A stretch of DNA of 64,000 nucleotides from an uncultured Candidatus Saccharibacteria bacterium (GTDB lineage: Bacteria > Patescibacteriota > Minisyncoccia > Phycocordibacterales > CAIZLB01), in the NCBI GenBank assembly GCA_964607805.1, contig CAZSLF010000001.1:12811-76810 (forward strand), read 5' to 3'. Shown piece by piece: positions 1,351-54,604 of the stretch. Made by a program: the position numbers and the translations under genes. The stretch's first letter is position 1, and each line of letters begins with the position of its first letter. Below the pieces are notes generated by a model. That model made no database searches. It was given only the letters and a program-made list of their open reading frames with translations, and was not told where the DNA came from.

Positions 1351-1381
1351 TTGACAAAATGCAAAATTGTGACACTATACA
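1351..1381 (+). promoter_or_regulatory. Sigma70-like promoter for the 1447 cassette
   Basis: TTGACA at 1351-1356 and an A/T-rich -10 candidate (ACTATA/TATACA) 17-19 nt downstream. Confidence 0.45.
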
Positions 1382-1446
1382 AATGGCTCTTTTCAACCAT
1401 TCAGAACGCTAGACACATTCAGTAAACTCTAACCACATATACGATC

Positions 1447-1812
1447 ATGAATACTATCTACGGAATCTATCAAGTGCTAGGTGGAGACCAGGCTACCCCT
1501 AAAATGCCCGGGTGGATGATTCTCTTCTTCATTTGCCTACTTATTAGCACGAGCAGACTATGCGCTGCGTGCTTCCTGGATGCAGCATCGATCAAACGAA
1601 ACACTTGGCTAACACGTTCGCTGGCCTTGCCAGCAGCGCTCGGGTTTATGTCATCTCTCTGTATACACGGGCTTGCTGCCTCGATGTTCCTTACATTGGT
1701 GTTGCTTCCGAGTGCAGGCGCTCCAATTGGAGCAGTCTTGCCGACATGTCTGTTTGGGATATTGAGCAATGCTATCTTCGTATCCAGGTTCTTTCGAGGC
1801 GTTTACGCCTAA
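1447..1812 (+). CDS. Hypothetical small membrane protein (GC-richer cassette)
   Basis: 121-aa ORF with several hydrophobic segments, bracketed by a promoter (1351) and a terminator (1839). Overlapping ORFs in other frames probably reflect local GC richness. See findings for the coding-versus-RNA ambiguity. Confidence 0.5.
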   Translation: MNTIYGIYQVLGGDQATPKMPGWMILFFICLLISTSRLCAACFLDAASIKRNTWLTRSLALPAALGFMSSLCIHGLAASMFLTLVLLPSAGAPIGAVLPTCLFGILSNAIFVSRFFRGVYA

Positions 1813-1838
1813 CTTATTACTCATTTTCATGAGTGCGA

Positions 1839-1873
1839 GCTCCGACCTGATTGGTTGGGGCTTTTTTATTTTT
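1839..1873 (+). terminator. Rho-independent terminator
   Basis: Stem gctccgacc (1839-1847) / ggttggggc (1853-1861) followed by ttttttattttt. Confidence 0.7.
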
Positions 1874-1882
1874 AAAATTTTC

Positions 1883-1910
1883 TTGACATACCCTACTTCC
1901 AATATATAGT
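1883..1910 (+). promoter_or_regulatory. Sigma70-like promoter for the 1948 gene
   Basis: TTGACA at 1883-1888, 16-nt spacer, TATAGT at 1905-1910. Confidence 0.45.
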
Positions 1911-1947
1911 TGCAGGAAAGTTCATAAACAACTATCCCCCCATTTTC

Positions 1948-2265
1948 ATGAAAAATCTAAAAGGAAATAAAAAGAGAGGAACGCACTCGACGGCTATTGA
2001 ATTAGCGGAGCGACTGGTTTTGATGATTCAGAAGAATACTTTGATAACAGGAGTTCAACTTGGGCAGATTAAGACTGGTGCGAAGGCAAATGGAATTCAT
2101 CGCATAAAAATTGAGAAGACAAGTATTGGATTTAAGTTGCAAATTAAGGAAGGACAAGCGGTGCAGATTGTGTATATTTATACGAAAGATTTTGAGGAAG
2201 TTTCTAAGGTGATTTCTGAAGCAGCGAAGGAGTTGCATGCGGAAGTTGTTTTGAGGAATGGGTAG
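1948..2265 (+). CDS. Hypothetical protein
   Basis: 105-aa ORF with its own promoter-like signal. No recognisable motif. Confidence 0.55.
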   Translation: MKNLKGNKKRGTHSTAIELAERLVLMIQKNTLITGVQLGQIKTGAKANGIHRIKIEKTSIGFKLQIKEGQAVQIVYIYTKDFEEVSKVISEAAKELHAEVVLRNG

Positions 2266-2402
2266 GTGTGGGATTTTAGATTAATGGCAACCCTTGAGCT
2301 CTTGCCAAATATACAATTCAATGTTACTTTCTCTGAGGTTAAGGTTCCCTACACCTCACAAAGTATGGCTGAGCTATCAGTGAATAGCTACCAGAACATC
2401 CA

Positions 2403-2693
2403 ATGGCTAATGAAATTGTGGCTGCAAATCGTATGCAGAAAAAAGAAATACTGAAGCGTCTCAAAGAGCTGCAGGTTGGTACCGTCGTTCGATTCCAAGG
2501 AACGTCATACGAGCAAGCGATCACCAGCGAAGAGTGTCAATTCTACATGATCTACGCGATTCAGCCTGCGCCGGCTGCCGGAAGAGTACGACTCGTCTCG
2601 CTTGACGGCAAATTGGCTATCGAGCGCGATGATTCGCACTTGGTGCACGCTCACAATGTCATGTTTCAAATCGAACCGTGCGCCAGTGAGTGA
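2403..2693 (+). CDS. Hypothetical protein (GC-richer cassette)
   Basis: 96-aa ORF followed by a strong terminator at 2713-2737. No recognisable motif. Confidence 0.55.
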   Translation: MANEIVAANRMQKKEILKRLKELQVGTVVRFQGTSYEQAITSEECQFYMIYAIQPAPAAGRVRLVSLDGKLAIERDDSHLVHAHNVMFQIEPCASE

Positions 2694-2712
2694 AAATGGC
2701 TATGCCATACGG

Positions 2713-2737
2713 GACCCCAAAGGTTGGGGTCTTTTTT
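2713..2737 (+). terminator. Rho-independent terminator
   Basis: GACCCCAA (2713-2720) / TTGGGGTC (2724-2731) followed by TTTTTT. Confidence 0.8.
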
Positions 2738-2744
2738 GTTATCC

Positions 2745-3020
2745 TTATATTCCAGCAAAATAAGTTACATAAACAGCAATAACAAAAAGAAAAATAGCAA
2801 ACACCAGAGGAAACCATAGAAAATACATAAATATTTTATGGTTATATTTTATGGCTATTAACATAAACCAGATAATTGTACCGAACACTAAAGCAAAAAA
2901 TATTGATCCGTAAATATTATTATTGTTAATATTCTTATTCAAACCAAAAATATCAGTCATATATGCGAAAGCAATGACACCAAGTGAGGCTGGTTTAATG
3001 TAGTCTAAAAATATTTTCAT
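2745..3020 (-). CDS. Small integral membrane protein
   Basis: ORF 2745..3128 trimmed to the internal start MKIFLDYIKPASLG (ATG at complement 3018-3020). The longer N-terminus would read through repeat element E2. Three hydrophobic segments; AT-rich. Confidence 0.6.
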   Translation of the reverse strand: MKIFLDYIKPASLGVIAFAYMTDIFGLNKNINNNNIYGSIFFALVFGTIIWFMLIAIKYNHKIFMYFLWFPLVFAIFLFVIAVYVTYFAGI

Positions 3021-3035
3021 GATTTTATTATATAT

Positions 3036-3147
3036 GGCGAGCAGGATTCGGTCACGCGTTAAAATTGCGATGCAATTTTCCGCGCGACCCCGCCTCCCAG
3101 ATTGCACTTCGCTTCGCTCACTGCGCAATCTGGTCCGGCTTTCTCAT
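3036..3147 (-). repeat. tRNA-linked structured element, copy E2 (downstream of tRNA-Tyr)
   Basis: Same block order as E1: GAGAAAGCCGGAC, hairpin CCAGAUUGC/GCAAUCUGG (3097-3105/3125-3133), GGAGGCGGGGUCG, and hairpin AAAAUUGC/GCAAUUUU (3061-3068/3072-3079). It ends with a 12-nt copy (3039-3050) of tRNA-Tyr T-arm sequence (3215-3226). Confidence 0.7.
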
Positions 3148-3161
3148 CAACTCAATACAGC

Positions 3162-3207
3162 AAAAAATTAAGACCTACATACTGTTGTATGTAGGTCTTA
3201 ATTTTTT
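3162..3207 (-). terminator. Long perfect hairpin with flanking A and T runs after tRNA-Tyr
   Basis: aaaaaattaagacctacata ctgt tgtatgtaggtcttaatttttt. Confidence 0.65.
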
Positions 3208-3208
3208 G

Positions 3209-3292
3209 TGCGTAGAGCAGGATTCGAACCTGCGTAGCCCAATGGGCGATTGATTTACAGTCAATTGCGATTGACCACTCCGCCATCTACGC
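3209..3292 (-). tRNA. tRNA-Tyr (anticodon GTA), long variable arm
   Basis: Hand fold. Acceptor GCGTAGA/TCTACGC, anticodon arm ATTGA-CTGTAAA-TCAAT, variable arm CGCCCATTGGGCTAC, T arm GCAGG-TTCGAAT-CCTGC, discriminator A. No encoded CCA. Confidence 0.9.
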
Positions 3293-3394
3293 ATAACCGA
3301 CTAAGTAGGCAAATCGGAGCAATTAGCTTTCGAATAACCCACCGGCCTCGGAACGGAAGCTATCCTAACATTTTTTTAAGCCACTGAAAAGGCT

Positions 3395-4087
3395 TTAAAT
3401 TTTAGTAAGTGAACCTCCTTCAAACTTAACTTTTATTGTTGATTCTGTATTCCACTCTGAATTGTCGAGGAAATTCATTCCAAAAAGAGTAATTATATTA
3501 TTACTGATTGAAGCGCTTTTAATTGTTGTGCGTAGGCCATTTCCAGCATAGAAATTATTGTTTGGCATAACAAGCGTAGCTTTTCCACTGGCTGAATTTA
3601 TTACAACATCCAAATTATATGAGCAATTGGGATCACAATATGTAGTTTCAAGAATTGCGTCCTGCAAACCGTCGCTATTCAAATCACCTCGAGCTAAAAC
3701 TTTTGCAGTTTGATATGTTCCTGATTTGTTTGATGCTTGCTTATTGCTAAAATTACCAGTACTTACCAATCTCATAGCCTGGTTAGCCTCAAGATTGGAA
3801 TTAAAAGCCTCGATAATTTTACTATCAACCATAACTCCAGCTGTAACAATTGTTTTATTTGCCGGAGAGGCTGGTTCGGTAGCTAATTTCGTAGAATCTA
3901 TTTTAGCGTCAACAACCTTGGAATTTGTAGAAGATGAATTTAATGTTGTAGTAGATGCGTTTGAATTTTCTTCTACACTATTATCAATATTAATATTAGC
4001 TGCACCTCTTGAATTAACTGCGAAGATAGTACCCACAACTAGCAGCAAGAACACTATTACTAATATAATTATATTTTGTTTTTTCAT
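3395..4087 (-). CDS. Secreted or membrane-anchored hypothetical protein
   Basis: 230-aa ORF. N-terminal hydrophobic anchor MKKQNIIILVIVFLLLVVGTIFAV and a Ser/Thr/Asn-rich linker. It carries a DxNxDGxxD-like segment (GDLNSDGLQDA). Confidence 0.7.
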   Translation of the reverse strand: MKKQNIIILVIVFLLLVVGTIFAVNSRGAANINIDNSVEENSNASTTTLNSSSTNSKVVDAKIDSTKLATEPASPANKTIVTAGVMVDSKIIEAFNSNLEANQAMRLVSTGNFSNKQASNKSGTYQTAKVLARGDLNSDGLQDAILETTYCDPNCSYNLDVVINSASGKATLVMPNNNFYAGNGLRTTIKSASISNNIITLFGMNFLDNSEWNTESTIKVKFEGGSLTKI

Positions 4088-4118
4088 TTTTGATGATTTA
4101 CTTATTTATTCAATTACT

Positions 4119-7100
4119 TTATCGCACTTTTGAGGTTTTTGGTTTTGAATTTGTCTTGACTACATCAAGGTTGTCAATATTGCTGTCTGAGTCATTGTCA
4201 ATATTATTTTCATCTTCACTTGGATTATTTGTTGCACCAGAGTTTGCGCCAATATTTTGGTTTCCACTAGCGTTGCCGTTGCCATGACTAATTAACTTTT
4301 TACCTTTCTTAACTTCGAAAATAAATTCAACTGGACTCTGAGATCCACCCTCTCGAGAGTAGCTAGCTCGAAGATCTGCAAATGTATTAACGCCAAATTC
4401 CATAGACTTGATAGGTGACTTAATTTTGCCAGAATTTTCGGCTGATGATTTGTCGCCTTTTCCATCGGAACCCTTACCCTCCTTTCCATTCTTCCCTTCC
4501 TTTCCGTTTTTCTTCACGCTAACAGAAACTGTCCCACCCTTAAGAACTCCTTCAGAAATTATGAGGGATGCCATCGGTGTCAAAATTTTGTTTTGAATCA
4601 AACGCTTGAGAGGACGTGCACCATAGTGAGGATCGTATCCTTCCTTCGCAAGATATGTAAGCACGTCTTCAGAAAGTTCAAGTGTAATTTCTTTTTCACT
4701 AAGTCTTGCTCGAACTTTTTGCAACTCAATATCAACAATATTTCTAATTGCTTCAGGACTTAGGATATCAAAGAGAACAATTTCATCGATTCGGTTCAAG
4801 AATTCAGGACGGAAATGATCTCGCAAAGCCTCCATAACTTTCTGCTTTGAGTTTTCATAGTTTTCTTTGTCGCGAGCGTTGCCATCTACACCCTTCAACT
4901 CATCTGCATCGGCGCCGACATTAGCATTGAAGCCAATTGATTGCATACGATCGATAAATTGTGCACCAATATTAGAAGTCATTATGATAATGGTGTTCTT
5001 GAAATTAATTGTTCGTCCCTTTGAATCTGTAAGACGACCGTTGTCCAAAACCTGAAGAAGGATATTGAAAATCTCCGGATGAGCTTTCTCAATTTCATCG
5101 AAAAGAATTACTGAATATGGTCTATGTTTTACAGTTTCAGTTAGAGATCCGCTGTCCTCATGGCCAACATATCCTGGTGGGGCACCAATTATCTTAGATA
5201 CTGCATGTTTTTCCATATACTCAGACATATCTACACGAATTAGTGCCTTCTCATCGTCGAACATGAATTTCGCAAGAGATTTTGTAAGCTCAGTTTTTCC
5301 AACTCCAGTTGGTCCAAGGAATATGAAAGATCCGATTGGTCTATTTGGATCGTTAATACCAGCACGTGATCGCTTAATTGTATCTGCAACTTTAGCAACT
5401 GCAGCATCTTGTCCAAGAATTGATTTCTTTAGATCTTCTTCAATTCGTGCCAACTTCTGAACCTCTTCTTCGAGCATCCGAGTAACTGGAATTCCAGTCC
5501 ATCGCGCAACAATTGTTGCAATATCATGCTCTGTAATTTCTTCTTTCAAAATTCTTCTTGAACTTTGTAGTTTTTTAAGTCTCTTTGTTTTGTTTTCCAA
5601 ATCTTTTTCAAGAGCAGGCAATTTTACATATCGAATTTCCGCAGCTTTTGATAAATCGGCATGTGCCTCCGCCCGATCTGCATCTAATCGCAAAGTCTCT
5701 AATTGCTTTTTGATATTTTTAATATCTGAAAGAGTTTCCTTTTCATTTATCCACTTAGCTTCTACTTCTGCGGTCTTCTGCTTAAGATCTGCAATTTGAG
5801 TCTCGATTTCTTTAATTCGAGTCTTTGTATTTTTATTTGTCTCAGACTCTTTCTTAAGCGCTTCACGCTCAATTTCAAGACGCATAACTTTTCGATGTAC
5901 ATCTTCAAGCTCTGGTGGTTTGTTTTCAAGTGCAATTTTAAGAGAAGATGCTGCTTCGTCGATCAAGTCCACTGCCTTATCTGGCAAAAATCTATCGCTA
6001 ATATATCGACTAGACAAAGAAACCGCTGCAATTATCGCATCGTCTGTAATTCGAACACCGTGATATAGCTCATATTTTTCTTTAAGTCCTCGCAAAATTG
6101 CTACAGCATCTTCAGTTGAAGGTTCTTGAACGTATACTGGTTGAAATCGTCGCTGTAGCGCTGGATCCTTTTCAATATGTTTCTGATATTCCTTTAGAGT
6201 TGTTGCACCAATTGCACGTAACTCGCCACGGGCTAACGCAGGCTTTAGCATATTTGAAGCATCGAGTGATCCTTCTGCAGCACCAGCACCTACAATTGTA
6301 TGAATTTCATCGATAAATAGAATAACTTTACCATCCGACTTCTCAATTTCTTTTAAAATATTCTTCAAACGCTCCTCAAATTCTCCACGATATTTAGTTC
6401 CAGCAATTAAAATTCCAAGATCGAGAGAAACAAGCTCTTTTTCTTTAAGAGATTCAGGAATATCACCCATTGCAATACGATTCGCCAATCCTTCTGCAAT
6501 TGCAGTCTTTCCAACACCTGCTTCACCAATTAATATTGGATTATTTTTAGTTCTTCGAGAAAGAATCTGAATTACACGATTAATTTCTGAATCACGACCG
6601 ATAACAGGATCTAATTTATTTTCACGAGCAAGAGCAGTAAGATTGCGAGTATATTTGACAATGGCCTTCATCTTTTTACTCCCCGTATTTTCAGCAGTTG
6701 GCTTTGCCGCTTTCAATTCAGAAATAGTTTCAGCAATTGCGCCCCGCTCCAATTTAAATTTTTGAGATAAAAGCTCACGCCCCGAGCTCGCAACGTCAAA
6801 GAATGCCAAGAACATATGTTCCACTGATACAAAATCATCTTTCAAAGTAGCCGCAACACGCGCCGATGTTTCAATAATCTGAGCAAGCTCAGGTGTAAGA
6901 TATAACTGGTATGAAGGTGACAAAGTCTGTCCGCCTTCACCTGTCTCAATAGCCTCCAAAACAGTGTCTGTGAGTAAAATAGTATCCACCTCAAGCTTAT
7001 CAAGCACAGAAAGCACCAAACTATCCTCCTGAACTAGCAAAGCAGTCAAAAGATGCAGAGGATTGACGTTGTTCTGTCCCCTTTCTATGGCTAATTCATG

Positions 7101-7154
7101 GGCTTTTTTAATCGCTTCTTTAGCTTTTGTCGTAAAATGGCTTAGTGGTGGCAT
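4119..7154 (-). CDS. clpB: ATP-dependent chaperone ClpB with a long low-complexity C-terminal extension
   Basis: Clp N-domain, NBD1 Walker A GEAGVGKT and Walker B ILFIDEIH, a long coiled-coil middle domain, NBD2 GPTGVGKT / [10 protein letters not shown], and sensor-2 GARPLKR. At 1011 aa it is about 150 aa longer than typical ClpB. Confidence 0.95.
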
Positions 7155-7197
7155 AATTCGATTATAGCAGATATCAGAGGTTATGGAATATCTAGCA

Positions 7198-7234
7198 AGT
7201 AAAAAGACCCGAGCGCTTAAAGCTACTCGGGTCT
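7198..7234 (-). terminator. Rho-independent terminator (minus sense; weaker on plus)
   Basis: agacccgag (7205-7213) / ctcgggtct (7226-7234). The minus-sense read is followed by UUUUU (complement of 7201-7205). Confidence 0.7.
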
Positions 7235-7244
7235 TGTTTGAAAA

Positions 7245-7813
7245 TACACGGTCCCCGGCGGTGGGGACACGTTTATAGATGGAAATCCGACGATAGGTTA
7301 CGTAACTATCATAGGCGGATGATCTGCTCTAGTGTCAGACCGATGACTTTAGGCTTCGTCAGTAGGTTCGAATGTTTCTACCCAGACCTCGCTTCAGTCA
7401 TACTCCCAAATGTTATTTCAGCATGGCGGTCAAGCCTTGCTGTTGATAATTGAGGTTGTCTCCTCATTGATGGCCGCGACTTGCGTTTAAGCCATTCATC
7501 GATTTTGTCTCTGAAGACTAAACAGGGTGAATCAGCCTATTCTCCCTGTCACTTCAGCAGACTGAACACGTCATATGATGGGTTTTGGGACCACATAGAG
7601 GACATCCGCCTTGTTACTGTCGATGGGAGCTACTTTGGCTTGCGCCATTTACGCATTCCGCGTTCAATTTGCCCCTCAAAATCCCCTAGAAGCTATATTT
7701 ATAGCCCTGCATTATTGCAGATTAGAAACTTTGAGGGACAAACTGAACATTTAAAGAACTTATGTCGAATACTGTACACTCTTTCCAGTATTAGTCAAGC
7801 ACGTCTCACCACC
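7245..7813 (-). ncRNA. Putative large structured non-coding RNA (~570 nt), class unknown
   Basis: No credible ORF, and GC is higher than in the flanks. Terminal inverted repeat 7260-7271 versus 7802-7813 (10/12). Nested helices: 7671-7680/7730-7739 enclosing perfect hairpins 7692-7705 and 7707-7720; 7511-7527/7544-7557; and 7286-7290/7316-7320 enclosing 7293-7297/7306-7310. Two hairpin plus U-run terminators read on the minus strand at its low-coordinate end. Strand is inferred. Confidence 0.55.
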
Positions 7814-7816
7814 TAA

Positions 7817-10039
7817 TTACTTATTACCAGAAGATTGTTCGAGCACGGCCTCACTCACCTTCTCCGCAATATTCCCTATATCCACCGTCGTAGTAAATCG
7901 TCCAAGTGAAATTCGAAGAGAACTCAACGCACAATTTGATCTTCCAAGAGCTTCGATAACATAAGAAGATGCATCTTCGTTCGTAGCGCGACAACTTGTA
8001 ACAGATGAAAGTTCAATTCCTAAAACATCGAGACGTAAAACTAGGAACTCTGCGTCAATTCCTGGGAAACAAATATTTAAATTATTAGGAAGTCTTTCTT
8101 CGAGAGTTCCATTTACCTTAATTCCTAAAACTTTATCTTGCAATTTACTCATAAGCATCTCAAGCAAAGTATCGCGGAACTCCAAAAGTTTTGCTGACTG
8201 ATCTTCCCTTTCGTTATGAGCTATATCGAGAGCATGCTTAAGACCAATAATTGCAGGGATATTTTCAGTTCCTGGCCGAAGACTACTTTCTTGATTGCCA
8301 CCTAGGAAAATTGGTGACAAATGAACATGTCGGCGTTTTACAAGCGCACCAACACCTCGTGGACCATAGACTTTTCCTCCATCAATAGTCATAAGATCAA
8401 TATTCAAAGTCATAATACGCATATCCTCATAAAGTGCTGCCTGACAAGCGTCTGTGTGGATATATGGATATCCAGTTCCCTCTCTTCCAAGACTTTTCTT
8501 AAAATGCCGCACTTCTCGCGCAATTTCTTTTAGCGGCTGAACGGTTCCAATTTCATTGTTCGCATAAATAATTGATATAAGAACAGTTTCTTCTCGCAAA
8601 ACTTTTTTAATATCTTTTGGATCTACTAGCCCATCTTCATTTACAGGAATAAAAGAAACATCTATACCTTTATTTATAAAATCAAGAGCGATTTCAATTA
8701 TAGAAGGATGTTCAATTGTAGAAATGATAAAGTGCGGACGAACTTTTTGTGGCTTATCGCCATTTTTCAATTTCTTTTCTAAAAGTTTATCACCTTCTGT
8801 CGTGCTACCTCTATCCACAAAACCTTTGAGAATCCCCTGAAAGACTAGATTATTTGTTTCAGTTCCTCCGGATGTGAAGAAAATTTCATTTTTATTTGCT
8901 CCGAAAAAAGCGGCCACTGACATGCGCGCATCCTCAAGAGCCTTTTTGGCCTGCACACCCTTCTTATATAGAGAAGATGGATTTGCCGGGAACTGATCCA
9001 TGGCCTCAAACATCACTTTTTTTACTCGAGGATCGATTGGAGTAAGTGAAGCATAGTCGGCGTATACGGGAGAGCTTAAGGGTTGGCCTGCAGTATTTGG
9101 TGCCAGCTGCGCTGTTGGAGTCGAAGTTTTAGTTGAAGGGAGAATGACAGAAGCTGGCGACACAGCTCCAGCAACTCTAGGAAAACTTTCCAAAATTTTT
9201 GGTTTTATGGCAGCGGCTGCAACGGCGGCTTCTGAAATTGCAGGCGGAACATCTTTGTCAAAATCCTCAGCAAACTTTTCTTCATCATGATGCAAATCCT
9301 GCAAATTTTTCTTGCGTCCTCGTCGAAAAGCTTCAAGTGCTGATTTAAAAATGTTTTTTGATTCTGTTGCTGGCGAGGGTTTTGGATCTTCTTTATGTTC
9401 GGGTAGCGCATTGTCAAATTCCTGATAATCAAATAAAACTGAATTTTCGTCTCTCTTTTCTTCATTTTCTAAATGAGACTCAGTCGCAATTAGAATCTCG
9501 TCTAACTTCTGAGCTAAATTTACTTTTTCTTCATCTTTTTCAGATTTCTCTGGAATTTCTGTCTCAATTTCCTTGACCTCCGCAATTTCTACTACACTTT
9601 CTTCAATTATTTTATTATGAATTTCGGTTTTTTCTGTTTTAGTTTGTTCTTCATTATCATCACCTACCTGAGCACTATTTTTAACACCTTTCAGTTTTTC
9701 TGAAAGTGAAGGTCGCCTATTGATATTCTTGTTTTCGCTTTTGTTTTCTCCGTCAAAACCTGTACTGGCGATCGCACCTTTCGAAAAACTTTTGCCAATA
9801 CCATTACTTAGACCATTACTCAAACCTTTACTAGTTTCAACAATTTTAGAATTTATTTGAGAAAATGAAGTTGTCAGAGAAGACTTAGCTTTTTCAGTTG
9901 CGCCTGTCACTTTCTTTTGAACTTTCTCCACAGAATTTCGAAAAGACTTAAAAGACTTCGATTCTTCCTTATCAATTGATTTTTTAAGTGCCCCAACAAT
10001 ATTTGAGGTCTTTTTAAGAAAATTTGAATCAAATTTCAT
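7817..10039 (-). CDS. Cysteine desulfurase (class V aminotransferase, IscS/NifS-like) with ~330-aa low-complexity N-terminal extension
   Basis: C-terminal ~400 aa carry the family pattern: YADYASLTPIDPRV, FTSGGTETNNLV, STIEHPSI, HTDACQA, GGNQESSLRPGTENIPAIIGL, and the active-site Cys region SSVTSCRA. Start taken at MKFDSNF (10039). The alternative upstream ATG at 10087 lies in an atypically GC-rich stretch. Confidence 0.85.
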   Translation of the reverse strand: MKFDSNFLKKTSNIVGALKKSIDKEESKSFKSFRNSVEKVQKKVTGATEKAKSSLTTSFSQINSKIVETSKGLSNGLSNGIGKSFSKGAIASTGFDGENKSENKNINRRPSLSEKLKGVKNSAQVGDDNEEQTKTEKTEIHNKIIEESVVEIAEVKEIETEIPEKSEKDEEKVNLAQKLDEILIATESHLENEEKRDENSVLFDYQEFDNALPEHKEDPKPSPATESKNIFKSALEAFRRGRKKNLQDLHHDEEKFAEDFDKDVPPAISEAAVAAAAIKPKILESFPRVAGAVSPASVILPSTKTSTPTAQLAPNTAGQPLSSPVYADYASLTPIDPRVKKVMFEAMDQFPANPSSLYKKGVQAKKALEDARMSVAAFFGANKNEIFFTSGGTETNNLVFQGILKGFVDRGSTTEGDKLLEKKLKNGDKPQKVRPHFIISTIEHPSIIEIALDFINKGIDVSFIPVNEDGLVDPKDIKKVLREETVLISIIYANNEIGTVQPLKEIAREVRHFKKSLGREGTGYPYIHTDACQAALYEDMRIMTLNIDLMTIDGGKVYGPRGVGALVKRRHVHLSPIFLGGNQESSLRPGTENIPAIIGLKHALDIAHNEREDQSAKLLEFRDTLLEMLMSKLQDKVLGIKVNGTLEERLPNNLNICFPGIDAEFLVLRLDVLGIELSSVTSCRATNEDASSYVIEALGRSNCALSSLRISLGRFTTTVDIGNIAEKVSEAVLEQSSGNK

Positions 10040-10150
10040 GTGGGTGTGGGGGTGGTCTTGCCGGCGCTTTGGGCGGGCCTCGGGCATAAATTAGTGCCTA
10101 GGCTATGGCGCCACTATACAAAAAAAAGAGCAATCTGTATACTTTGGAGC

Positions 10151-10666
10151 ATGAATATCGCAACTTCGTTCTCCGCCCTTTTTTCTTCATATCCATTTAA
10201 CCTAATTTTCACAATTTTTGTCGCAATCGCGCTAATCGTGTCAATTGTTTCTCTCATTATTTCTTTGAGGGCAAAAAATCGCATTTCTCAATTATTAAAT
10301 GGAAAAAATTCTAAAGATATTGATGAAGTGCTTATGCGCATTTATAAAAATATTTCTTCGCTGGATCAATTTCGCACAAAAATTCTTGCCGACATATCTG
10401 TGATGAATACAAAAATTTCTCGATCGGCGCAGAGTATCGAAACTGTACGATTTAATCCTTTCAAAGGTACTGGATCTGGTGGAAATCAAAGTTTTGCTAC
10501 TGCAATTTTAAATGAAAATGGTGACGGCGTAATTCTTTCAAGTTTATATTCAAGCGATCGAGTTAGTATTTTTGCAAAACCAATTTTGAAATTAGAGTCA
10601 ACATATGAATTAACTGAAGAAGAAATTCAGGCTCTGCATGCAGCTGCGACAAAATTAGGGCTCTAA
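10151..10666 (+). CDS. DUF4446-like membrane protein
   Basis: ORF trimmed to MNIATSF (ATG 10151). N-terminal TM helix; VRFNPFKGTGSGGNQSFATAILNENGDGVILSSLYSSDRVSIFAKPI...LTEEEIQAL matches my recollection of the DUF4446 pattern. Confidence 0.6.
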   Translation: MNIATSFSALFSSYPFNLIFTIFVAIALIVSIVSLIISLRAKNRISQLLNGKNSKDIDEVLMRIYKNISSLDQFRTKILADISVMNTKISRSAQSIETVRFNPFKGTGSGGNQSFATAILNENGDGVILSSLYSSDRVSIFAKPILKLESTYELTEEEIQALHAAATKLGL

Positions 10667-10760
10667 TTTTTGCGACTTTGCGATAATTCAAGCAAAAGGG
10701 CTTAGGCTAAGGCGCTCCTCATTGCTAAATGGCAAAAAATGATGTACATTCTATTGACAT

Positions 10761-12395: not shown

Positions 12396-12435
12396 TGACC
12401 GATCGGCGGTCTTGCGACGATAAACAAAAACTACC

Positions 12436-12756: not shown

Positions 12757-12871
12757 GCGAACAATTTTGCAAGAATGAGTTTTAAGGCGACTTGTCCTAG
12801 GCCTTAGTTTTGTATAGAATCAAGCGGTAGAACTGTGGCAGATTTTTTATGTGCAGTCTATATATGTAAAT

Positions 12872-12944: not shown

Positions 12945-13006
12945 CAAAAAAAAATAAACTGGAAAATTCATCCAGAAGTGCTAGAATAGTCTCCGTATTA
13001 AACCCT

Positions 13007-14127: not shown

Positions 14128-14133
14128 ATTCAT

Positions 14134-49191: not shown

Positions 49192-49263
49192 GGCCCTATC
49201 GTCTATCGGTTAGGACATCACGTTTTCAATGTGAGAAGCAGGGTTCGACTCCCTGTAGGGTCA
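49192..49263 (+). tRNA. tRNA-Glu (anticodon TTC)
   Basis: Acceptor GGCCCTA/TAGGGTC, anticodon arm TCACG-TTTTCAA-TGTGA, T arm CAGGG-TTCGACT-CCCTG, discriminator A. No CCA. Confidence 0.88.
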
Positions 49264-49309
49264 CACAAATAAAAAACACCAACCTGCGTTGGTGTTTTTT
49301 ATTTGTGTG
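49264..49309 (+). terminator. Long perfect hairpin with a T-run after tRNA-Glu
   Basis: cacacaaataaaaaacaccaac (49262-49283) / gttggtgttttttatttgtgtg (49288-49309). It overlaps the last 2 nt of the tRNA. Confidence 0.7.
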
Positions 49310-49490: not shown

Positions 49491-49519
49491 TGGACAATGA
49501 CACAAATATATTGTATTAT
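49491..49519 (+). promoter_or_regulatory. Sigma70-like promoter
   Basis: TGGACA at 49491-49496, 17-nt spacer, TATTAT at 49514-49519. Confidence 0.5.
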
Positions 49520-49602
49520 TCTTTTCAGAAGCTCTCTAAAGTATTGGTTGAAACCGATCAGCTTCTCGTCAGAGAAACCTAAATTACGAAGGAATTACCA
49601 CA

Positions 49603-50067
49603 ATGACCACAGAAGACCAAGAAATGCTTGAGCAACTGAGTGATCAGAACATGCTCCATATGCAGCAAGGTGAGCAGCTCCGCTACATCCTCGAGTGGCT
49701 CTTCAAGGATACAGATATGCTTGTTGACGGCACCACTAAGGCGCAAGTTGACAAGATGACCCAATTCAAGAAGATCGAACTCCTCGAGCGGCTGTGGGAG
49801 CACCCCGATATGATTGGCCACCCTATGCTGCGCGACATCGGCCAATTCGTAGAGGAAATCAAACCCCACAAGGACGGTTTCCGCACAGCTGACGACTATG
49901 AGTCACCCTCAACTGAGTTGATGCTCGGACAATGTCTCCATTGCAACTGGAGTCAGCTGATTCACTACTGTCCTGGCAACGAGGAGAGCGAACGTCAAGC
50001 GGTCGAAAATCTCCAGCAAGCCCACAACGATCGCGGCGTATGCAACAACATCATCACCTACTCTTGA
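49603..50067 (+). CDS. Hypothetical acidic protein with a C-terminal Cys cluster (GC-richer cassette)
   Basis: 154 aa. CLHCNWSQLIHYCPGN...GVCNN could be a metal-binding cluster. Overlapping ORFs on other frames are attributed to local GC richness. Confidence 0.6.
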   Translation: MTTEDQEMLEQLSDQNMLHMQQGEQLRYILEWLFKDTDMLVDGTTKAQVDKMTQFKKIELLERLWEHPDMIGHPMLRDIGQFVEEIKPHKDGFRTADDYESPSTELMLGQCLHCNWSQLIHYCPGNEESERQAVENLQQAHNDRGVCNNIITYS

Positions 50068-50232
50068 TTCAGGAAGGTGAGCAGCGATTACTACAGCTCG
50101 CCCCAGTGCGACCAACGAAAACTCGTTCGTCGACATTGGTGGCGGGTTTTTCTTTTAATAAATTATTTCTGATGACTGTTGAATCGATAGTTCTATATAA
50201 TTTCACTCTCAATTAGTATATAATTTACTCAA

Positions 50233-50960: not shown

Positions 50961-51353
50961 ATGAAAAAAAATCTATCATTTGCGAAGATAATATCCATCT
51001 TTGCAATATTCACACTGATTAACACCAGCTCCGCTTTTGCTTGCAGTCCACCGTACCGTGAACCTGGATATGTTGAGCCTCGACCTTCAGTAATAGATAT
51101 GCTTTTAACAGCGAAATTCGTTGACCAAGCTACATGTAGTTCATTCGGTACTAATCTTACACTTCTCAGCCGAGGTATTTTAATTGCTTTAGCAATTGCG
51201 TTATTCTTTAGCTTTAGGCATTTCAAAAAGAAAATTATAGGAAATGCAATTAGAAGAATAATACTAACTTTTCATATTATATTTATAGCACTGCTTCTTG
51301 TATTAGCATTGTTACCTTTAGACTTAGATTCTCTATACTATTTATTTTTTTAA
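50961..51353 (+). CDS. Small secreted/membrane protein
   Basis: 130 aa with a signal-like N-terminus (IFAIFTLINTSSAFAC, possible lipobox-like Cys) and two C-terminal TM helices. Confidence 0.55.
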   Translation: MKKNLSFAKIISIFAIFTLINTSSAFACSPPYREPGYVEPRPSVIDMLLTAKFVDQATCSSFGTNLTLLSRGILIALAIALFFSFRHFKKKIIGNAIRRIILTFHIIFIALLLVLALLPLDLDSLYYLFF

Positions 51354-51367
51354 ATTCTAAGTAAACC

Positions 51368-51393
51368 TTGACATGTCTCAATCCGTGTATTAT
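51368..51393 (+). promoter_or_regulatory. Candidate promoter
   Basis: TTGACA at 51368-51373 and TATTAT at 51388-51393, but the spacer is only 14 nt, so geometry is suboptimal. Confidence 0.35.
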
Positions 51394-51487
51394 CGTACCC
51401 TCAGATTAATTTCAGCAAATCACCCCAAAGTACCACACAAACCACAACCACGCTGCCAAACAGCAAAACAGAAAAAGAAACTGAACC

Positions 51488-52375
51488 ATGAGCACCACCC
51501 TAGCACCCGCGCCTACCAGCACCCTGGTCACCTACCCAATAGTCGCAGCCCTTATCGGCGCTGAAAAGGAACTTGGAAAGGATCGAATCTGGAGGATAAT
51601 CAATGATCAACAGGGAGAGTTTCTCAGGAAATTCTTCCTTGGAAGTCGAGGAGAAGTCGAAACAATTCCCGAAATTGAAACGAGGGTTTCCAGAGAAGCC
51701 GAGACACTGAATGATTTCCTCCGCGAACGTGGATTTTCAATTCAACTGGATAAATTCACTGCACCCGACGATTTTGGGGTTGTTAGCATCCTCGAACTTG
51801 TTTTGGACTGGCTGACTCCTGGTTGGAAGACGTCTGTCCGCTCTCAAACCGACAACAAGGATTACCCTGCTGTTGAGATGAGGGAAAGTATTTCCTTCTT
51901 TACTGTCGCGGGGTTCAATGATCCTGTGGCAGCAATCCAAACCAAAACTGAAGATGTAGTCTATCTCACCGTACCAAGAAACGACGTGACCGAGACAGAA
52001 CTGGACAGCGTAGCTGAGACTACTCTGAGATTAATGACTCCCTGCTTCAACTATGACAAGCTGGTATTCCCCATGATCGATCTTGACATGGAATTGGATA
52101 TCACCTGGCTCCAAGGAATGTTCACTTTTGATGAAGATGACGTGATAGCAGTTATCAGGCAGGCTCTCCAGCAAACCCTTTTCAAAATGGACGAGATTGG
52201 AGCAATTGTCAAAAGCGCCGTCGCCATCAGCGCTGTACGATGCAGCATAAGTCAACCGAAGGAAACGTTCACCATCGACAAACCTTTCCTCGCAATCGTT
52301 GTGAGGCCAAGTCTCAAAAAGCCACTTTTCGTTGGCTATCTCAATACCGATTGCTGGGCCAAGCCGAATCGGTAA
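51488..52375 (+). CDS. Short serpin-like protein (GC-richer cassette)
   Basis: The C-terminus MDEIGAIVKSAVAISAVRCSISQPKETFTIDKPFLAIVVRPSLKKPLFVGYLN matches the serpin hinge / reactive-loop / F..D.PFLF.I......LF.G pattern. At 295 aa it is ~100 aa shorter than canonical serpins. Confidence 0.5.
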   Translation: MSTTLAPAPTSTLVTYPIVAALIGAEKELGKDRIWRIINDQQGEFLRKFFLGSRGEVETIPEIETRVSREAETLNDFLRERGFSIQLDKFTAPDDFGVVSILELVLDWLTPGWKTSVRSQTDNKDYPAVEMRESISFFTVAGFNDPVAAIQTKTEDVVYLTVPRNDVTETELDSVAETTLRLMTPCFNYDKLVFPMIDLDMELDITWLQGMFTFDEDDVIAVIRQALQQTLFKMDEIGAIVKSAVAISAVRCSISQPKETFTIDKPFLAIVVRPSLKKPLFVGYLNTDCWAKPNR

Positions 52376-52495
52376 GGTAAGCCAATTGGCCCTGCCAAAC
52401 CCACGACCCTACGCGCTCCCCCTATTTTTAGGGGGGAGAGATGCGGGGGTTTTTGTTTTTTTAAATTCAACCACGAATTTTGATATACTACCCAT

Positions 52496-52936
52496 ATGGA
52501 AACTAAAAAGATGGGTTGTGGCTTCGGAGTCATGATACTCAAAGATAATAAAATTTTGCTTGGTCAGCGACATGTTGATCCAGAAAAAGCCAGTAGTCTT
52601 ATGAATGGCGAAGGCACGTGGACAATGCCCGGAGGTAAATTAGATTTTGGTGAAAGTTTCGAGGAAGGTGCCATGCGCGAAGTTATGGAAGAAACCGGAA
52701 TTGAAATTAAAAAAGAAGATTTAAAAGTGATAAGTCTGACTAACGATATTGTGCCAACCGCGCATTTTGTAACCATCGGACTTCTATGCACAAATTTTAA
52801 AGGCGATGCAAAAGTTATGGAACCCGACGAGATCACACAGTGGCAGTGGTTCGATTTGGAAAATTTACCTACGCCTCTTTTTAAACCTAGTGAAAAGATA
52901 GTTAAGAATTATTTAGATAATGTATTTTATCGATAG
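52496..52936 (+). CDS. NUDIX hydrolase
   Basis: Nudix box GGKLDFGESFEEGAMREVMEETGIE. The start may be the internal MGCGFGV. Confidence 0.88.
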   Translation: METKKMGCGFGVMILKDNKILLGQRHVDPEKASSLMNGEGTWTMPGGKLDFGESFEEGAMREVMEETGIEIKKEDLKVISLTNDIVPTAHFVTIGLLCTNFKGDAKVMEPDEITQWQWFDLENLPTPLFKPSEKIVKNYLDNVFYR

Positions 52937-52945
52937 CACAAAATC

Positions 52946-52975
52946 TTGACACTGTGTCACAAAACGTGATATATA
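52946..52975 (+). promoter_or_regulatory. Sigma70-like promoter
   Basis: TTGACA at 52946-52951, 17-18 nt spacer, ATATAT/TATATA at 52969-52975. Confidence 0.55.
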
Positions 52976-53032
52976 AATAACAGACCCCCACAACGAAACA
53001 ACAAACCAGACATACAGTCGATTAGAATACGA

Positions 53033-53800
53033 ATGAAATTCAGTCCATACACCCAGTCGTTTCAACTCGCGCCCTTAAATCGCAAGTTGATAAAAGTTCT
53101 TTTGCACTTGTTGCAAGCAAATATCAAAAGTTTGATTGCAATCATGGCAATTCAATTGGTAGCTTATTCCCTTTCCGATGTGGCACAAGCACAAAGCACT
53201 CCCGCTTTGCGTCAAAACGTGAAGGAAACAAACCCCCAATTGCGTCGGCCAAGTCGACCTACTGTTATTGCACCAAGCAAAACATCCAAACCGCAACCAA
53301 GACCAGCTTGGCGTCAGGTCTATGCTCGTAGCACTTATTATAATGCTAACGAATCAATATCCGACTCAGACACCAGAGCGAAGAAAACCTCTTCGCTTGT
53401 CCGTATCGACACAATCCAAAACCTCGGTTTAGGTGTTGTAGCTGTTGATCCGAGCATAATCCCTTACGGCTCGCAAGTTATCACGCCTGACGGCAGGATA
53501 TACATTGCAGCCGATCGTGGTGGCGATGTCATCACAAGAAAAGCAGCCACAGAGCTCGCAACGCTAAAAGGTTTAGGAGAAGACAGTGCAGAATACCGCG
53601 CTCTCGTCCTAGACTTTTACTCAAAGAGTCAGGTCGGTGGATATTGGGATACATTTATTGTCATTCCTTACACCAACCCTGATAGTCCTGAGGGCTTCAG
53701 AGAACTTCCTTATGCGAGTAAAATTGCATATCTGAAGAATGTTGCGCAATCTCATGGTCGCTATCAAGGTGGCAATAGCTACACTGCAAACAACCTATAG
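53033..53800 (+). CDS. Secreted 3D-domain protein (MltA/Rpf-type DPBB lytic transglycosylase-like)
   Basis: GVVAVDPSIIPYGSQVITPDGRIYIAADRGGDV matches the 3D-domain pattern (vAvDp..iP.Gs.v.....G...A.DtGg.i). N-terminal hydrophobic anchor. Confidence 0.65.
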   Translation: MKFSPYTQSFQLAPLNRKLIKVLLHLLQANIKSLIAIMAIQLVAYSLSDVAQAQSTPALRQNVKETNPQLRRPSRPTVIAPSKTSKPQPRPAWRQVYARSTYYNANESISDSDTRAKKTSSLVRIDTIQNLGLGVVAVDPSIIPYGSQVITPDGRIYIAADRGGDVITRKAATELATLKGLGEDSAEYRALVLDFYSKSQVGGYWDTFIVIPYTNPDSPEGFRELPYASKIAYLKNVAQSHGRYQGGNSYTANNL

Positions 53801-53863
53801 CCTATAGCGAACTAGCTGCAAGCCACCTGTAGCAAGTCAGAAGCGAACACAAAGCGAAAATAT

Positions 53864-53929
53864 GCGCCAGCCATACACGTGCCCGGTTTCTAACCGAGTC
53901 ACGACATGGCTGGTGCTTTTCTATTTCCT
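53864..53929 (+). repeat. 66-bp direct repeat, copy 1 (also the terminator hairpin of the 53033 gene)
   Basis: gcgccagccatacacgtgcccggtttctaaccgagtcacgacatggctggtgcttttctatttcct is identical to 54539-54604 except for one base. The outer stem is GCGCCAGCCAT/ATGGCTGGTGC, followed by TTTTC. Confidence 0.85.
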
Positions 53930-53967
53930 CACCAAAATAATTATCAAAATCGAAATTTTAGCAAAAA

Positions 53968-53996
53968 TTGACTATTCCTAATATATATCATATAGT
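53968..53996 (+). promoter_or_regulatory. Sigma70-like promoter
   Basis: TTGACT at 53968-53973, 17-nt spacer, TATAGT at 53991-53996. Confidence 0.55.
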
Positions 53997-54074
53997 TTTT
54001 CACGGAACCATGCCTGTTTGCATGGCTTTTGCCACCTTAGAAAACCCTGAAAAACTCAACCCAGATTCAGAACC

Positions 54075-54527
54075 ATGATACCCACTTTGCCCGCCGGACA
54101 TCCAGGTAATCGTCCAAGCATTAAACGACTGCACACTGCTATTTACGAAAAATACCCCTGGCTGAATTTTCACTTCCCCGAAAGGGACAAGGAAAATTTC
54201 GATGAAGTAGTCTTGGATATTTCGCATCTCGACGATGAGCCATATTCAAGCGACTATAATTCAGAAAACATCTTCATTCTCGACGCTTCAGGAAAAACTA
54301 TCCACACCGTTGGTTACCTACCAAACTTTGCTTGGTGGAAAATCTGGCTCTGGTTAAGACAGGTCAATCATAGAGAGACTATCGGCGAGGCACTACTTCA
54401 CAAAAAATGTGTCAATGCCGCATACGTTCTTTCTGACGACGGTCTTCGTACAATTACGATATTCTCGCCGCGTGCCCGTGAGTCTCTGCATGAACTTGCC
54501 ACAAGGCATAGTCTAGACGTGCTTTGA
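54075..54527 (+). CDS. Hypothetical protein (GC-richer cassette bracketed by 66-bp repeats)
   Basis: 150-aa ORF with its own promoter and repeat-terminator. No motif recognised. Confidence 0.6.
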   Translation: MIPTLPAGHPGNRPSIKRLHTAIYEKYPWLNFHFPERDKENFDEVVLDISHLDDEPYSSDYNSENIFILDASGKTIHTVGYLPNFAWWKIWLWLRQVNHRETIGEALLHKKCVNAAYVLSDDGLRTITIFSPRARESLHELATRHSLDVL

Positions 54528-54538
54528 GGTCGTCTTTC

Positions 54539-54604
54539 GCGCCAGCCATACACGTGCCCGGTTTCTAACCGAGTCACGACATGGCTGGCGCTTTTCTATT
54601 TCCT
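54539..54604 (+). repeat. 66-bp direct repeat, copy 2 (terminator hairpin of the 54075 gene)
   Basis: 65/66 identical to 53864-53929 (T to C in the stem, GGCTGGTGC versus GGCTGGCGC). Confidence 0.85.

Follow-up and report, generated by a model that had tools for sequence, protein, structure and literature searches.

Predicted GC-rich transcription units among the core genes of a Patescibacteria genome

We analysed a 64-kb stretch of contig CAZSLF010000001.1 (referred to here as the window; 39.2 % GC, eight tRNA genes), in which 13 GC-richer open reading frames (ORFs), grouped into 12 predicted transcription units, are scattered between core genes along 54 kb. The core genes identified with Pfam include clpB, infB, rbfA, gyrA, rpsA, pth, lepB, ybeY, ftsA, ftsZ, trxB, tsaD, valS and prsW, and the window also carries a row of small T4SS-type pilin genes, which are typical of bacteria belonging to the candidate phyla radiation (CPR). 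The TsaD protein is only 41–49 % identical to those of the nearest GTDB species representatives, which are metagenome-assembled genomes (MAGs) of the Patescibacteria/Parcubacteria group. The host of the window is a Patescibacteria genome of a Parcubacteria/Paceibacteria-like lineage. The genomes of CPR bacteria are tiny, a life attached to hosts is assumed for them, and little is known of the ways in which they acquire new functions.

A preliminary description of this DNA, made by reading its sequence, had listed these ORFs as GC-richer gene cassettes lying on one strand. All of the listed ORFs are present where they had been placed, and the extra overlapping ORFs that had been noticed do lie on the same loci. 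The unit genes (named here by the first position of each ORF) have a GC content of 0.41–0.52 (mean 0.47), compared with 0.31–0.48 (mean 0.377) in 46 core genes; the enrichment was thus confirmed, although the 48–55 % proposed earlier was somewhat high. At third codon positions (GC3), the values are 0.37–0.66 (mean 0.495) for the unit genes and 0.16–0.40 (mean 0.280) for the core genes (Mann–Whitney, P=6e-8). Both C and G at third positions contribute to this excess, while the GC content at the first and second positions is ordinary. Two unit genes are weak outliers in composition, namely, 16330 (GC 0.41, GC3 0.37) and 40137 (GC 0.43, GC3 0.42).

All 13 unit genes lie on the + strand, compared with 21 core genes on the + strand and 25 on the − strand, and so the strand asymmetry described earlier holds by count. 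No real − strand gene with GC3 above 0.40 was found within the window. Among the slots that leave orientation free, eight of eight units are on the + strand, for which the chance is about 1 in 256, judged post hoc. The + strand is C-rich, with a skew of −0.05 and −0.18 at the third positions of + and − core genes, respectively, and of −0.12 in intergenic DNA. By the usual skew rule, the C-rich strand is the lagging strand; therefore, the + strand would be lagging and the units would be transcribed head-on to replication, provided that the replication direction suggested by the skew is correct.

The window sequence was also found on an NCBI contig of 143 kb and twice, independently, among Logan assemblies; one of the two Logan assemblies contains 4,658 nt of the window at 100 % identity and covers three units, part of a fourth and core genes. 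The junctions between core genes and units are identical base for base in assemblies from other sequencing runs. Since independent assemblies reproduce the window sequence, the GC-rich patches are not assembly chimeras.

Promoters, leaders and terminators of the units

The transcription starts, terminators and Shine–Dalgarno (SD)-independent initiation described below are predictions from sequence throughout. A TTGAC-type −35 element with a TAnnnT box at the right spacing begins 10 of the 12 predicted transcription units, the −35 boxes being located at 1351, 14623, 16140, 29400, 31565, 40012, 49491, 51368, 52946 and 53968, while no TTGAC promoter was found upstream of 2403 or 15546. The near-consensus promoters of the preliminary description were recovered, with 16140 as an addition and these two units as the exceptions. 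Compared with the promoters of leaderless core genes, the unit promoters showed a higher −35 score (5.0/6 versus 3.0/6, P=3e-4) and a lower −10 score (4.3/6 versus 5.2/6, P=0.009). Among the 46 core genes, 21 carry a TATAAT-like box ending 5–12 nt before the ATG together with a poor −35 element, and 10 of these 21 have a TG extension; about half of the core genes appear to be leaderless. Examples of such apparently leaderless genes are 4119–7154, 34766–35443, 39097–40008, 43159–44184 and 52496–52936. Two promoter architectures are shown by this comparison: a unit type driven by the −35 element, and a leaderless core type.

The predicted unit leaders are 52–90 nt long, with 155 nt for 16330. 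In the 60 nt upstream of the genes, units are richer than core genes in C (0.30 versus 0.16, P=1e-5) and poorer in T (0.20 versus 0.32), and the two groups are alike in G (0.13 and 0.15). The earlier picture of long, C/A-rich and G-poor leaders therefore stands for length and C-richness but not for G; such leaders also precede core genes of ordinary GC3, namely, ftsZ (0.23) and, on the − strand, 32432 (0.25) and lemA (0.34). An SD-like match was found for only about 4 of the 59 window genes, and two of these are the units 14715 and 49603. Most units do lack an SD, as had been stated, but this feature is not distinctive, because the lack is genome-wide. The 3′ end of 16S rRNA, with the anti-SD sequence, is absent from the window and from every fetched locus, and we found no paper in the literature that ties leaderless genes or SD usage to Patescibacteria.

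In every unit, the region from −40 to +20 is predicted to be almost free of structure, with a mean folding energy of −4.5 kcal/mol, compared with −11.9 kcal/mol for 60-nt windows of their own coding sequences (CDS) (Wilcoxon, P=5e-4), and a gene for a multi-domain S1 protein is present in the window (Pfam). A hairpin with a T tail follows every unit; however, strong terminators also follow core genes such as rpsA, and the private GC hairpins that had been attributed to the cassettes do not set them apart. In relatives, the promoters, leaders and terminators of the units are 95–97 % conserved and thus better kept than the payloads, with lower values of 86 % for the promoter and leader of 16330 and 91 % for the leader of 53033. 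The conservation of the unit leaders and their lack of structure at the start show them to be, in all probability, functional elements.

The units and their counterparts in close relatives

For the comparison of close relatives, we used contigs of two lineages. Relative A is composed of the Logan contigs L029–L031 and L033/L034, which are short contigs of one sample series and were assumed to represent one organism. Contigs L029–L031 are fully syntenic with 13.4–30.8 kb of the window and were found via the single non-identical homolog of 17484 among 5.8 billion proteins, and L033/L034, reached via a NUDIX homolog, are syntenic with 49.2–56.6 kb. Relative B (L032) carries the 40137 unit and the adjacent ftsZ. 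The core proteins of relative A are 90–99 % identical to those of the window (GyrA 99.2 %, S1 99.0 %), with a synonymous divergence (dS) of 0.1–0.8 and a ratio of non-synonymous to synonymous divergence (dN/dS) of 0.01–0.24, mostly below 0.13. In contrast, the shared units diverge at 5–30 times the core dN, with a dN/dS of 0.2–0.26 for 17484 and 29515, and four units (14715, 15546, 49603 and 54075) are missing in relative A.

Two of the missing units, 3 and 4, occupy a 1.56-kb segment (14577–16139) that starts exactly at the 3′ end of tRNA-Leu (14492–14576). Unit 3 has its promoter at 14623–14651, a GGAGG SD (−10.2 kcal/mol), an ORF at 14715–15374 for a multi-pass membrane protein of 219 aa (GC3 0.49) and a terminator at 15373–15406. 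Unit 4 has a very C-rich leader (C 0.44), an ORF at 15546–15986 (146 aa, GC3 0.46) with a weak EamA match (E 2e-4, below the Pfam cut-off) and a terminator at 16061–16092. The segment is absent from L029, in which position 1163 corresponds to window position 14576 and position 1238 to 16140. The segment 14133–14398, which contains tRNA-Lys, is inverted with respect to L029 731–996. Unit 9 (49491–50147) has the promoter TGGACA-17-TATTAT, an approximately 77-nt leader with an SD-like GAAGGA, and a long hairpin terminator reaching 50147; its ORF at 49603–50067 encodes an acidic protein of 154 aa, shows the maximum GC3 of the window (0.66) and is located about 230 nt downstream of tRNA-Glu (49192–49264). 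The proximity of cassettes to these two tRNA genes had been noted correctly. Together with two AT-rich small genes, 49603 is missing in relative A, the similarity to L033 ending at 49404 and resuming at 51123.

The fourth missing unit, unit 12 (53930–54604, 675 nt), has the promoter TTGACT-17-TATAGT at 53968–53996 and an ORF at 54075–54527 (150 aa), and is enclosed by a direct repeat of a 66-nt terminator element, of which the two copies (53864–53929 and 54539–54604) are 98 % identical. In relative A, which lacks this unit, the element occurs once and tsaD comes directly after it. This duplication shows that at least one insertion was copied in or crossed over within a terminator. The first copy terminates unit 11 (52946–53929), which consists of TTGACA at 52946, a 52-nt C/A-rich leader and an ORF at 53033–53800 (255 aa) with an N-terminal transmembrane segment or signal and a marginal 3D domain (E 3.5e-5, just above the Pfam cut-off). 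Its ortholog in L033 is 80 % identical, compared with 92–95 % for the neighbouring core genes, and the nucleotide identity is 91 % in the leader, 95 % in the 3′ untranslated region and terminator, and 83 % in the CDS.

Two further slots hold replaced or deeply diverged genes. The payload of unit 10 (51346–52393) comprises TTGACA-17-TATCGT at 51368, an approximately 85-nt leader (A+C 0.79) and an ORF at 51488–52375 (295 aa), and its terminator at about 52406–52460 lies outside the swapped segment. In relative A, window 51346–52393 is replaced by L033 1032–1664, which carries an unrelated + strand ORF of 174 aa (GC3 0.49) preceded by a TTGACA promoter of its own and a C/A-rich leader, while the flanks and the downstream terminator are 97 % conserved. 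Compared with L024, 51488 shows four single-nucleotide polymorphisms (SNPs), all of which are synonymous. Unit 5 (16140–18887) is a two-gene operon with TTGACA at 16140, a structured leader of about 155 nt, an ORF at 16330–17487 (385 aa), an overlapping second ORF at 17484–18806 (440 aa, N-terminal transmembrane segments) and a terminator at 18862–18887. The 16330 CDS has no nucleotide similarity to L029, and the amino acid identity is about 30 % (BLASTP 29.6 %; global alignment 33 %); however, the promoter and leader (190 nt) are 86 % identical, and similarity resumes about 135 nt into 17484, with 81 % in the downstream region. The 17484 product is 58–62 % identical to its L029 counterpart (dS 1.3, dN/dS 0.2). 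Being 86 % conserved in front of a replaced CDS, the leader of 16330 may have a regulatory role. The leader region (16140–16329) contains three hairpins, in one of which a GGAGG located some 45 nt ahead of the ATG is sequestered; it has no significant Rfam match, the sole match being an implausible one to Xist_exon1 (E 0.18, below threshold).

The reverse pattern, a unit closer between lineages than its neighbour, was observed for unit 8 (40012–40991), which is located between ftsA (37901–39094) and ftsZ (41190–42503) and consists of TTGTCA-17-TACTAT at 40012, an approximately 90-nt leader (C 0.37), an ORF at 40137–40937 (266 aa) and a terminator at 40966–40991. In relative B, the 40137 product is 96 % identical with a dS of 0.07, compared with a dS of 0.49 for the adjacent ftsZ, which indicates that the unit, or a tract that includes it, was exchanged recently. 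Only three distant homologs of 40137 were found among 1.8 billion representative proteins. Unit 6 (29400–30080) has the promoter TTGACG-17-TATTAT at 29400–29428, an approximately 80-nt leader with a 5′ hairpin, an ORF at 29515–30003 (162 aa, about four transmembrane segments, GC3 0.56) and a terminator at 30059–30080; its ortholog in L029 is 75 % identical, with a core-like dS of 0.63 and a dN/dS of 0.26, and conservation is about 96 % in the promoter and 5′ leader.

The remaining three units have no detected counterparts. Unit 7 (31565–32395; TTGACG at 31565, approximately 82-nt leader, terminator at 32367–32395) contains an ORF at 31682–32332 (216 aa, GC3 0.49), for which no Pfam, PHROG, PADLOC or PDB match and no homolog in 80 syntenic loci were found, and the look-up of exact proteins was empty. 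Unit 1 (1351–1863; TTGACA at 1351, approximately 61-nt leader, terminator at 1837–1863) contains a predicted ORF at 1447–1812 (121 aa, membrane-like) with a GC of 0.50 and a nearly flat distribution over the three codon positions (0.48, 0.49 and 0.52); neither a Pfam, PHROG or PADLOC match nor a homolog was found. Unit 2 (2302–2733) has a weak candidate promoter, TTGCCA-17-TACTTT at about 2302–2330, a predicted ORF at 2403–2693 (96 aa, GC 0.50, GC3 0.55) without a family match in Pfam, PHROG or PADLOC, and a terminator at 2711–2733.

Relative A also carries a GC-rich gene of 215 aa on the − strand between tsaD and valS, which are adjacent in the window; the region upstream of this gene is AT-rich, not C/A-rich. 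This GC-rich unit of relative A shows that the location of units on the + strand is no general rule. In addition, strain-variable genes of AT-rich composition were observed: an ABC-transporter gene (23987–25768, − strand, GC 0.33) is missing in relative A, and a 198-aa gene (L033 198–794, GC 0.30) is present only in relative A. The flexible genome is therefore not composed of GC-rich genes only.

For eight of the 13 genes, the orthologs, dN/dS values below 1, the serpin-like family described below and the synonymous SNPs show, at the level of comparative analysis, that the predicted ORFs are real coding genes. The earlier view of the cassettes as acquired accessory genes is borne out by the absences, replacement, diverged alleles and single low-dS unit among the close relatives, and by their lack in distant relatives.

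Products of the unit genes

About seven of the 13 unit products have transmembrane segments, as judged by eye, and most of the products gave no Pfam, PHROG, PADLOC or PDB sequence match. The clearest assignment was obtained for 51488, a member of a 104-protein family (about 290–300 aa) present in Patescibacteria and in some DPANN and Thorarchaeota MAGs. The family profile matched PAI-1 (E 5e-8) and about 100 other serpin chains in the PDB. The AlphaFold model of 51488 (pLDDT 86.8) has residues 242–254 disordered at the position of the reactive-centre loop, and all 50 of the top hits listed by Foldseek against the PDB were serpins (E 1e-10, TM score 0.5–0.6). On this evidence, the 51488 product has a compact serpin fold and, at 295 aa, is about 80 residues shorter than classical serpins. 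The serpin-like protein of the preliminary description was thereby substantiated, and the match behind its 3D-domain lytic enzyme (53033) is marginal, whereas the 'SPFH pair' and 'DUF218-like' identities were dropped, as neither has Pfam or PDB sequence support. The 51488 family is GC3-rich relative to the genome in four of four cases examined.

Intergenic slots and leader types in wider relatives

We further compared two sets of loci, 22 from GTDB around tsaD and 80 from metagenomes around rpsA. No unit protein is encoded by any of them, and the order of the flanking core genes is kept. In the more distant relative L038, ftsA and ftsZ are adjacent with a 210-nt gap. The slot between the lactamase-B-fold gene and rpsA, which is the site of 29515, varies from 190 to 2,262 nt over 55 loci and contains differing ORFs on either strand. 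These mixed orientations, together with the minus-strand unit of relative A, argue against a strand rule. In most AT-rich genomes, the slot ORFs have a GC3 of 0.45–0.68 compared with 0.25–0.37 for rpsA, the exceptions being two loci without an ORF and one that also carries an AT-rich ORF; in GC-rich genomes, the slot ORFs are equal to or below rpsA in GC3. This pattern fits a shared pool of intermediate composition, as does the mean GC content of Parcubacteria of about 44 % (PMC11188291).

Outside the window, the TTGACA promoter with a C/A-rich leader was also found in L027, where it occurs on both strands, and ahead of purF-, purO- and MGS-like genes of L046, L078 and L040, while the corresponding genes of L025 and L028 carry GGAGG instead. 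In a pool of 69 independent loci, from which the window and its close relatives were left out, GC3 relative to the locus median was +0.04 for genes with C/A-rich leaders and +0.03 for SD-led genes, against −0.01 where genes are leaderless (P=7e-7 and 1e-4, respectively). GC3 does follow leader type in these loci, but far less strongly than it does within the window. The units share their format of promoter and leader with the leadered genes of this clade in general, and this format travels with them; what makes it conspicuous here is a largely leaderless core that has drifted towards AT. On the 44.5 % GC Patescibacteria contig L027, an AT-rich RVT_1 reverse-transcriptase gene (6520–7866, GC 0.27) is located near a serpin-like gene.

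Search for mobile machinery

Pfam scans of nearly all window proteins detected no integrase, transposase, recombinase or reverse transcriptase. In an all-against-all comparison of the unit flanks (blastn-short), no shared sequence was found except for the one 66-nt pair, and 1.3 Mb of related loci contained no additional copy of this element or of the remaining regulatory pieces. [quoted passage not shown] A phage origin was rejected, as PHROGs gave one weak match (16330, 'lipoprotein', E 3e-5) and the neighbours are chromosomal core genes; scans of IMG/VR with three unit proteins and of GenBank phages by tblastn with two gave nothing. PADLOC returned no defence system for the unit proteins. 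Known RNA families were likewise rejected: in Rfam scans, run first with the gathering cut-offs and also with E values of up to 1, nothing but tRNAs was detected, and the units are not known non-coding RNAs (ncRNAs) or riboswitch leaders. The proposal of a dedicated, uniform insertion format is thus not supported, since no recombinase was found in the window, the unit borders have no sequence in common apart from the 66-nt pair, the hairpins are T-tailed like ordinary terminators, and the expression format also occurs on core genes.

Other features of the window

The interval 7245–7816, between clpB and a 756-aa aminotransferase-fusion gene, is ORF-free with a GC content of about 0.45 and folds much more stably than shuffled sequence (z −6.3 on the − strand and −4.1 on the + strand); no Rfam family matches it, even with E values of up to 1, and it may represent a large structured ncRNA. 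Two copies of a 55-nt element on the − strand (727–781 and 3043–3097), which ARAGORN and Rfam both leave uncalled, are 87 % identical and differ by compensatory stem changes (GAGAG..CTC versus GCGCG..GCG); between them lie tRNA-Trp, the two units 1447 and 2403, gene 1948 and, on the − strand, a small ORF. Gene 1948–2265 (DUF2103) has a consensus promoter, TTGACA-16-TATAGT, with a 37-nt leader, and its third positions are extremely skewed (G3 0.38, C3 0.02), unlike those of core genes and units.

Interpretation and alternative explanations

Taken together, we consider it likely, with a probability of about 65 %, that the 12 units belong to the flexible genome as self-expressed accessory modules of a single gene or a short operon, similar to phage morons, which are exchanged from a clade-wide pool. 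In this model, each module would occupy an intergenic slot between conserved core genes and would be gained, lost, replaced and re-exchanged among related lineages. A module would comprise a sigma-70-type promoter relying on a near-consensus −35 element, a C/A leader of 50–155 nt, one or two ORFs and an intrinsic terminator, and its weakly structured leader would allow ribosomes to start without an SD, probably with the aid of protein S1. The sharp boundaries, the low-dS tract at 40137 and the heterogeneous core dS suggest that transfer proceeds by homologous recombination in the conserved flanks, and the duplicated 66-nt terminator is the trace that a single crossover or copy-in would leave. 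The higher GC content of the units would reflect a clade-wide pool, with a GC3 of about 0.45–0.7, that has not yet decayed to the composition of the AT-drifted host.

Several points weigh against this model. Relative A was pieced together from short contigs, and its origin from a single organism is an assumption. The closest non-self homologs of the unit proteins are 32–58 % identical, and no donor was found in the searches made. The GC3 of 29515 is equally high in both lineages (0.56 and 0.57) at a core-like dS; its composition has therefore persisted since their split, which needs either a donor GC3 of about 0.75 or a force that keeps GC high. In three other genomes, one of which shares the TPM and NUDIX neighbours, the serpin-like family is likewise rich in GC3 (0.62 versus about 0.47), and GC-richness could be a property of this family. 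In other genomes, GC3 differs little with leader type (+0.03 to +0.08). The model does not explain why 10 of 10 transcription starts, and 8 of 8 in slots that leave orientation free, are on the + strand, and recombination is a presumed route of transfer.

Some of these points would be expected if the units were long-resident native genes, the high GC3 of which is kept by GC-biased gene conversion or by codon or mRNA selection in leadered genes. The equal GC3 across lineages at a dS of about 0.6 (29515, 0.56/0.57; 53033, 0.41/0.41), the GC3-rich serpin-like family in four genomes of differing background, the recent recombination evident over unit 40137 and the higher GC3 of leadered than leaderless genes over the 69 loci all agree with such a history. 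Nevertheless, we regard it as unlikely: turnover is real, with presence/absence and replacement by unrelated genes; the leadered core genes ftsZ (0.23), 32432 (0.25) and lemA (0.34) have ordinary GC3; the highly expressed core genes rpsA and infB are not GC3-rich; AT-rich variable genes (23987–25768 and L033 198–794) exist as well; and the slot ORFs of GC-rich relatives are not above rpsA, which an intermediate pool fits better than an always-raising force. Hypermutation of the units, in which strong promoters head-on to replication would speed up evolution and give both the divergence and the strand bias, was first suggested by identities of 58 and 30 % against 99 % for core proteins. The C-rich and thus, by the usual rule, lagging + strand, the near-consensus −35 boxes and the several-fold faster divergence of units than core are in line with it. 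However, the dS of 29515 equals that of the core and 40137 is less diverged than its neighbour ftsZ; a general rise of the mutation rate in the units is therefore not seen, and the idea was set aside as highly improbable. The excess divergence is mainly non-synonymous, which speaks for relaxed or diversifying selection, the transcribed promoter and leader parts are better kept than the CDS, and point mutation cannot yield absence or unrelated replacement; moreover, the replication direction is deduced from skew only, and the essential genes infB, rpsA, ftsZ and valS are also on the + strand.

A dedicated site-specific cassette system of the integron kind, with one orientation and with hairpins or promoter boxes as recombination sites, would account for the location of every unit on one strand, for the swap at the 51488 slot, which stops just before the shared hairpin and in which both payloads start with TTGACA, for the position of the 54075 unit between 66-nt hairpin repeats, as integration of a circular cassette would leave, and for the insertion that abuts the 3′ end of tRNA-Leu. 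We judge this system to be quite improbable, because integrase, transposase and reverse transcriptase are all absent among the window proteins, the unit flanks share only one 66-nt pair without copies in 1.3 Mb of related loci, the hairpins are T-tailed like ordinary terminators and are present after core genes too, and the units are scattered over 54 kb instead of being arrayed. The unit of relative A on the other strand has a different upstream region, slot ORFs lie on either strand over 55 loci, and the same format is present on core and metabolic genes. A looser, integrase-free 'plug-in' system, in which self-expressing modules would be swapped among lineages at fixed slots via conserved promoter-proximal and terminator crossover handles and would preferentially be placed or kept on the lagging strand, while the ancestral core would be expressed from leaderless promoters with a −10 element only, so that core and flexible genes would have two expression codes, is likewise doubtful. 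As for an artefact, in the form of assembly chimeras or non-coding patches with chance ORFs, the flat GC1–3 of some units (1447), the several open frames and the lack of detected homologs outside this genome for 1447, 2403, 31682 and 54075 could be cited in its favour. It is largely refuted for 8 of the 13 genes by junctions reproduced in independent assemblies, by orthologous units in the same places of relatives with intact ORFs and dN/dS below 1, and by the confirmed serpin fold, the synonymous SNPs and the absence of Rfam matches, and its overall probability is close to negligible.

The exchange of accessory modules among related lineages would thus provide a base-level picture of the CPR flexible genome, with turnover of single genes at fixed slots and no visible mobile-element machinery. 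Genome dynamics of this kind are known, but for this group there are scarcely any descriptions of them. The modules often encode membrane or exported proteins, and one encodes a miniature protein of serpin fold common to Patescibacteria and DPANN archaea. Because about half of the core appears leaderless, SD sequences are rare, and the accessory leaders are long and C-rich, gene finders tuned to SD sequences would misplace starts in such genomes. If the promoter split between core and accessory genes is genome-wide, it would offer a simple sequence marker of recently acquired genes.

Comparison with known systems

Integron cassettes are promoterless, co-oriented genes in arrays, moved by the tyrosine recombinase IntI and defined by attI, the promoter Pc and attC sites with R″ and R′ core sites. 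The units resemble them as single-gene modules in one orientation with a terminal imperfect hairpin, and one unit lies between repeated hairpin elements. They differ in that the window has no intI, attI or Pc, the hairpins are T-tailed without shared core sites, and the units are dispersed and, by prediction, self-promoted. A diversity-generating retroelement was rejected as an explanation: there is no reverse transcriptase in the window, no repeats match the unit CDS, and the divergence is gene-wide.

SD-independent initiation on unstructured A- or CA-rich leaders is represented by the leadered mRNAs of Bacteroidota, the CA-repeat enhancers of Escherichia coli and the CAA-rich omega leader of tobacco mosaic virus. 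Unlike these, the unit leaders are C-rich and not simply A-rich, and occur beside a largely leaderless core. The resemblance lies in the lack of an SD, the few G residues, the little structure predicted around the start codon, the S1 protein encoded in the window and the conservation of leader sequence or composition between relatives.

Additive and replacement flexible genomic islands have been described in free-living bacteria, as in the Alteromonas pangenome (PMC4898812). As in such islands, the core order is kept around hotspots with varying cassettes, tRNA genes are present at some sites, many products are membrane or exported proteins, and one cassette (40137) is closer between lineages than the core; the loci at which close relatives have versions that are unrelated or strongly diverged (the 51488 slot and 16330) correspond to replacement islands. 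The units are, however, only 0.4–2.7 kb long with one gene or a short operon, compared with several to tens of kb; the tRNA-Leu insertion has neither an integrase nor a tRNA-derived repeat, and there are no glycosylation clusters. To our knowledge, a difference in promoter and leader between units and core has not been described for flexible islands.

A phage moron is an extra single gene with its own promoter and terminator, located between genes that are adjacent in related phages (PMC4378225). In contrast to morons, the units reside in a cellular chromosome, among gyrA, rpsA, ftsA/ftsZ, tsaD, valS, infB and tRNA genes, and are numerous (12 in 54 kb) and all in one direction in this window. 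In other respects, they resemble morons: in 10 of the 12 units, a single coding region has a predicted promoter of its own and a factor-independent terminator; the 54075 unit is inserted between the 53033 unit and tsaD, and 40137 between ftsA and ftsZ; no recognizable recombinase target is present at the borders; and the composition of the units differs from that of their neighbours (GC3 0.495 versus 0.280).

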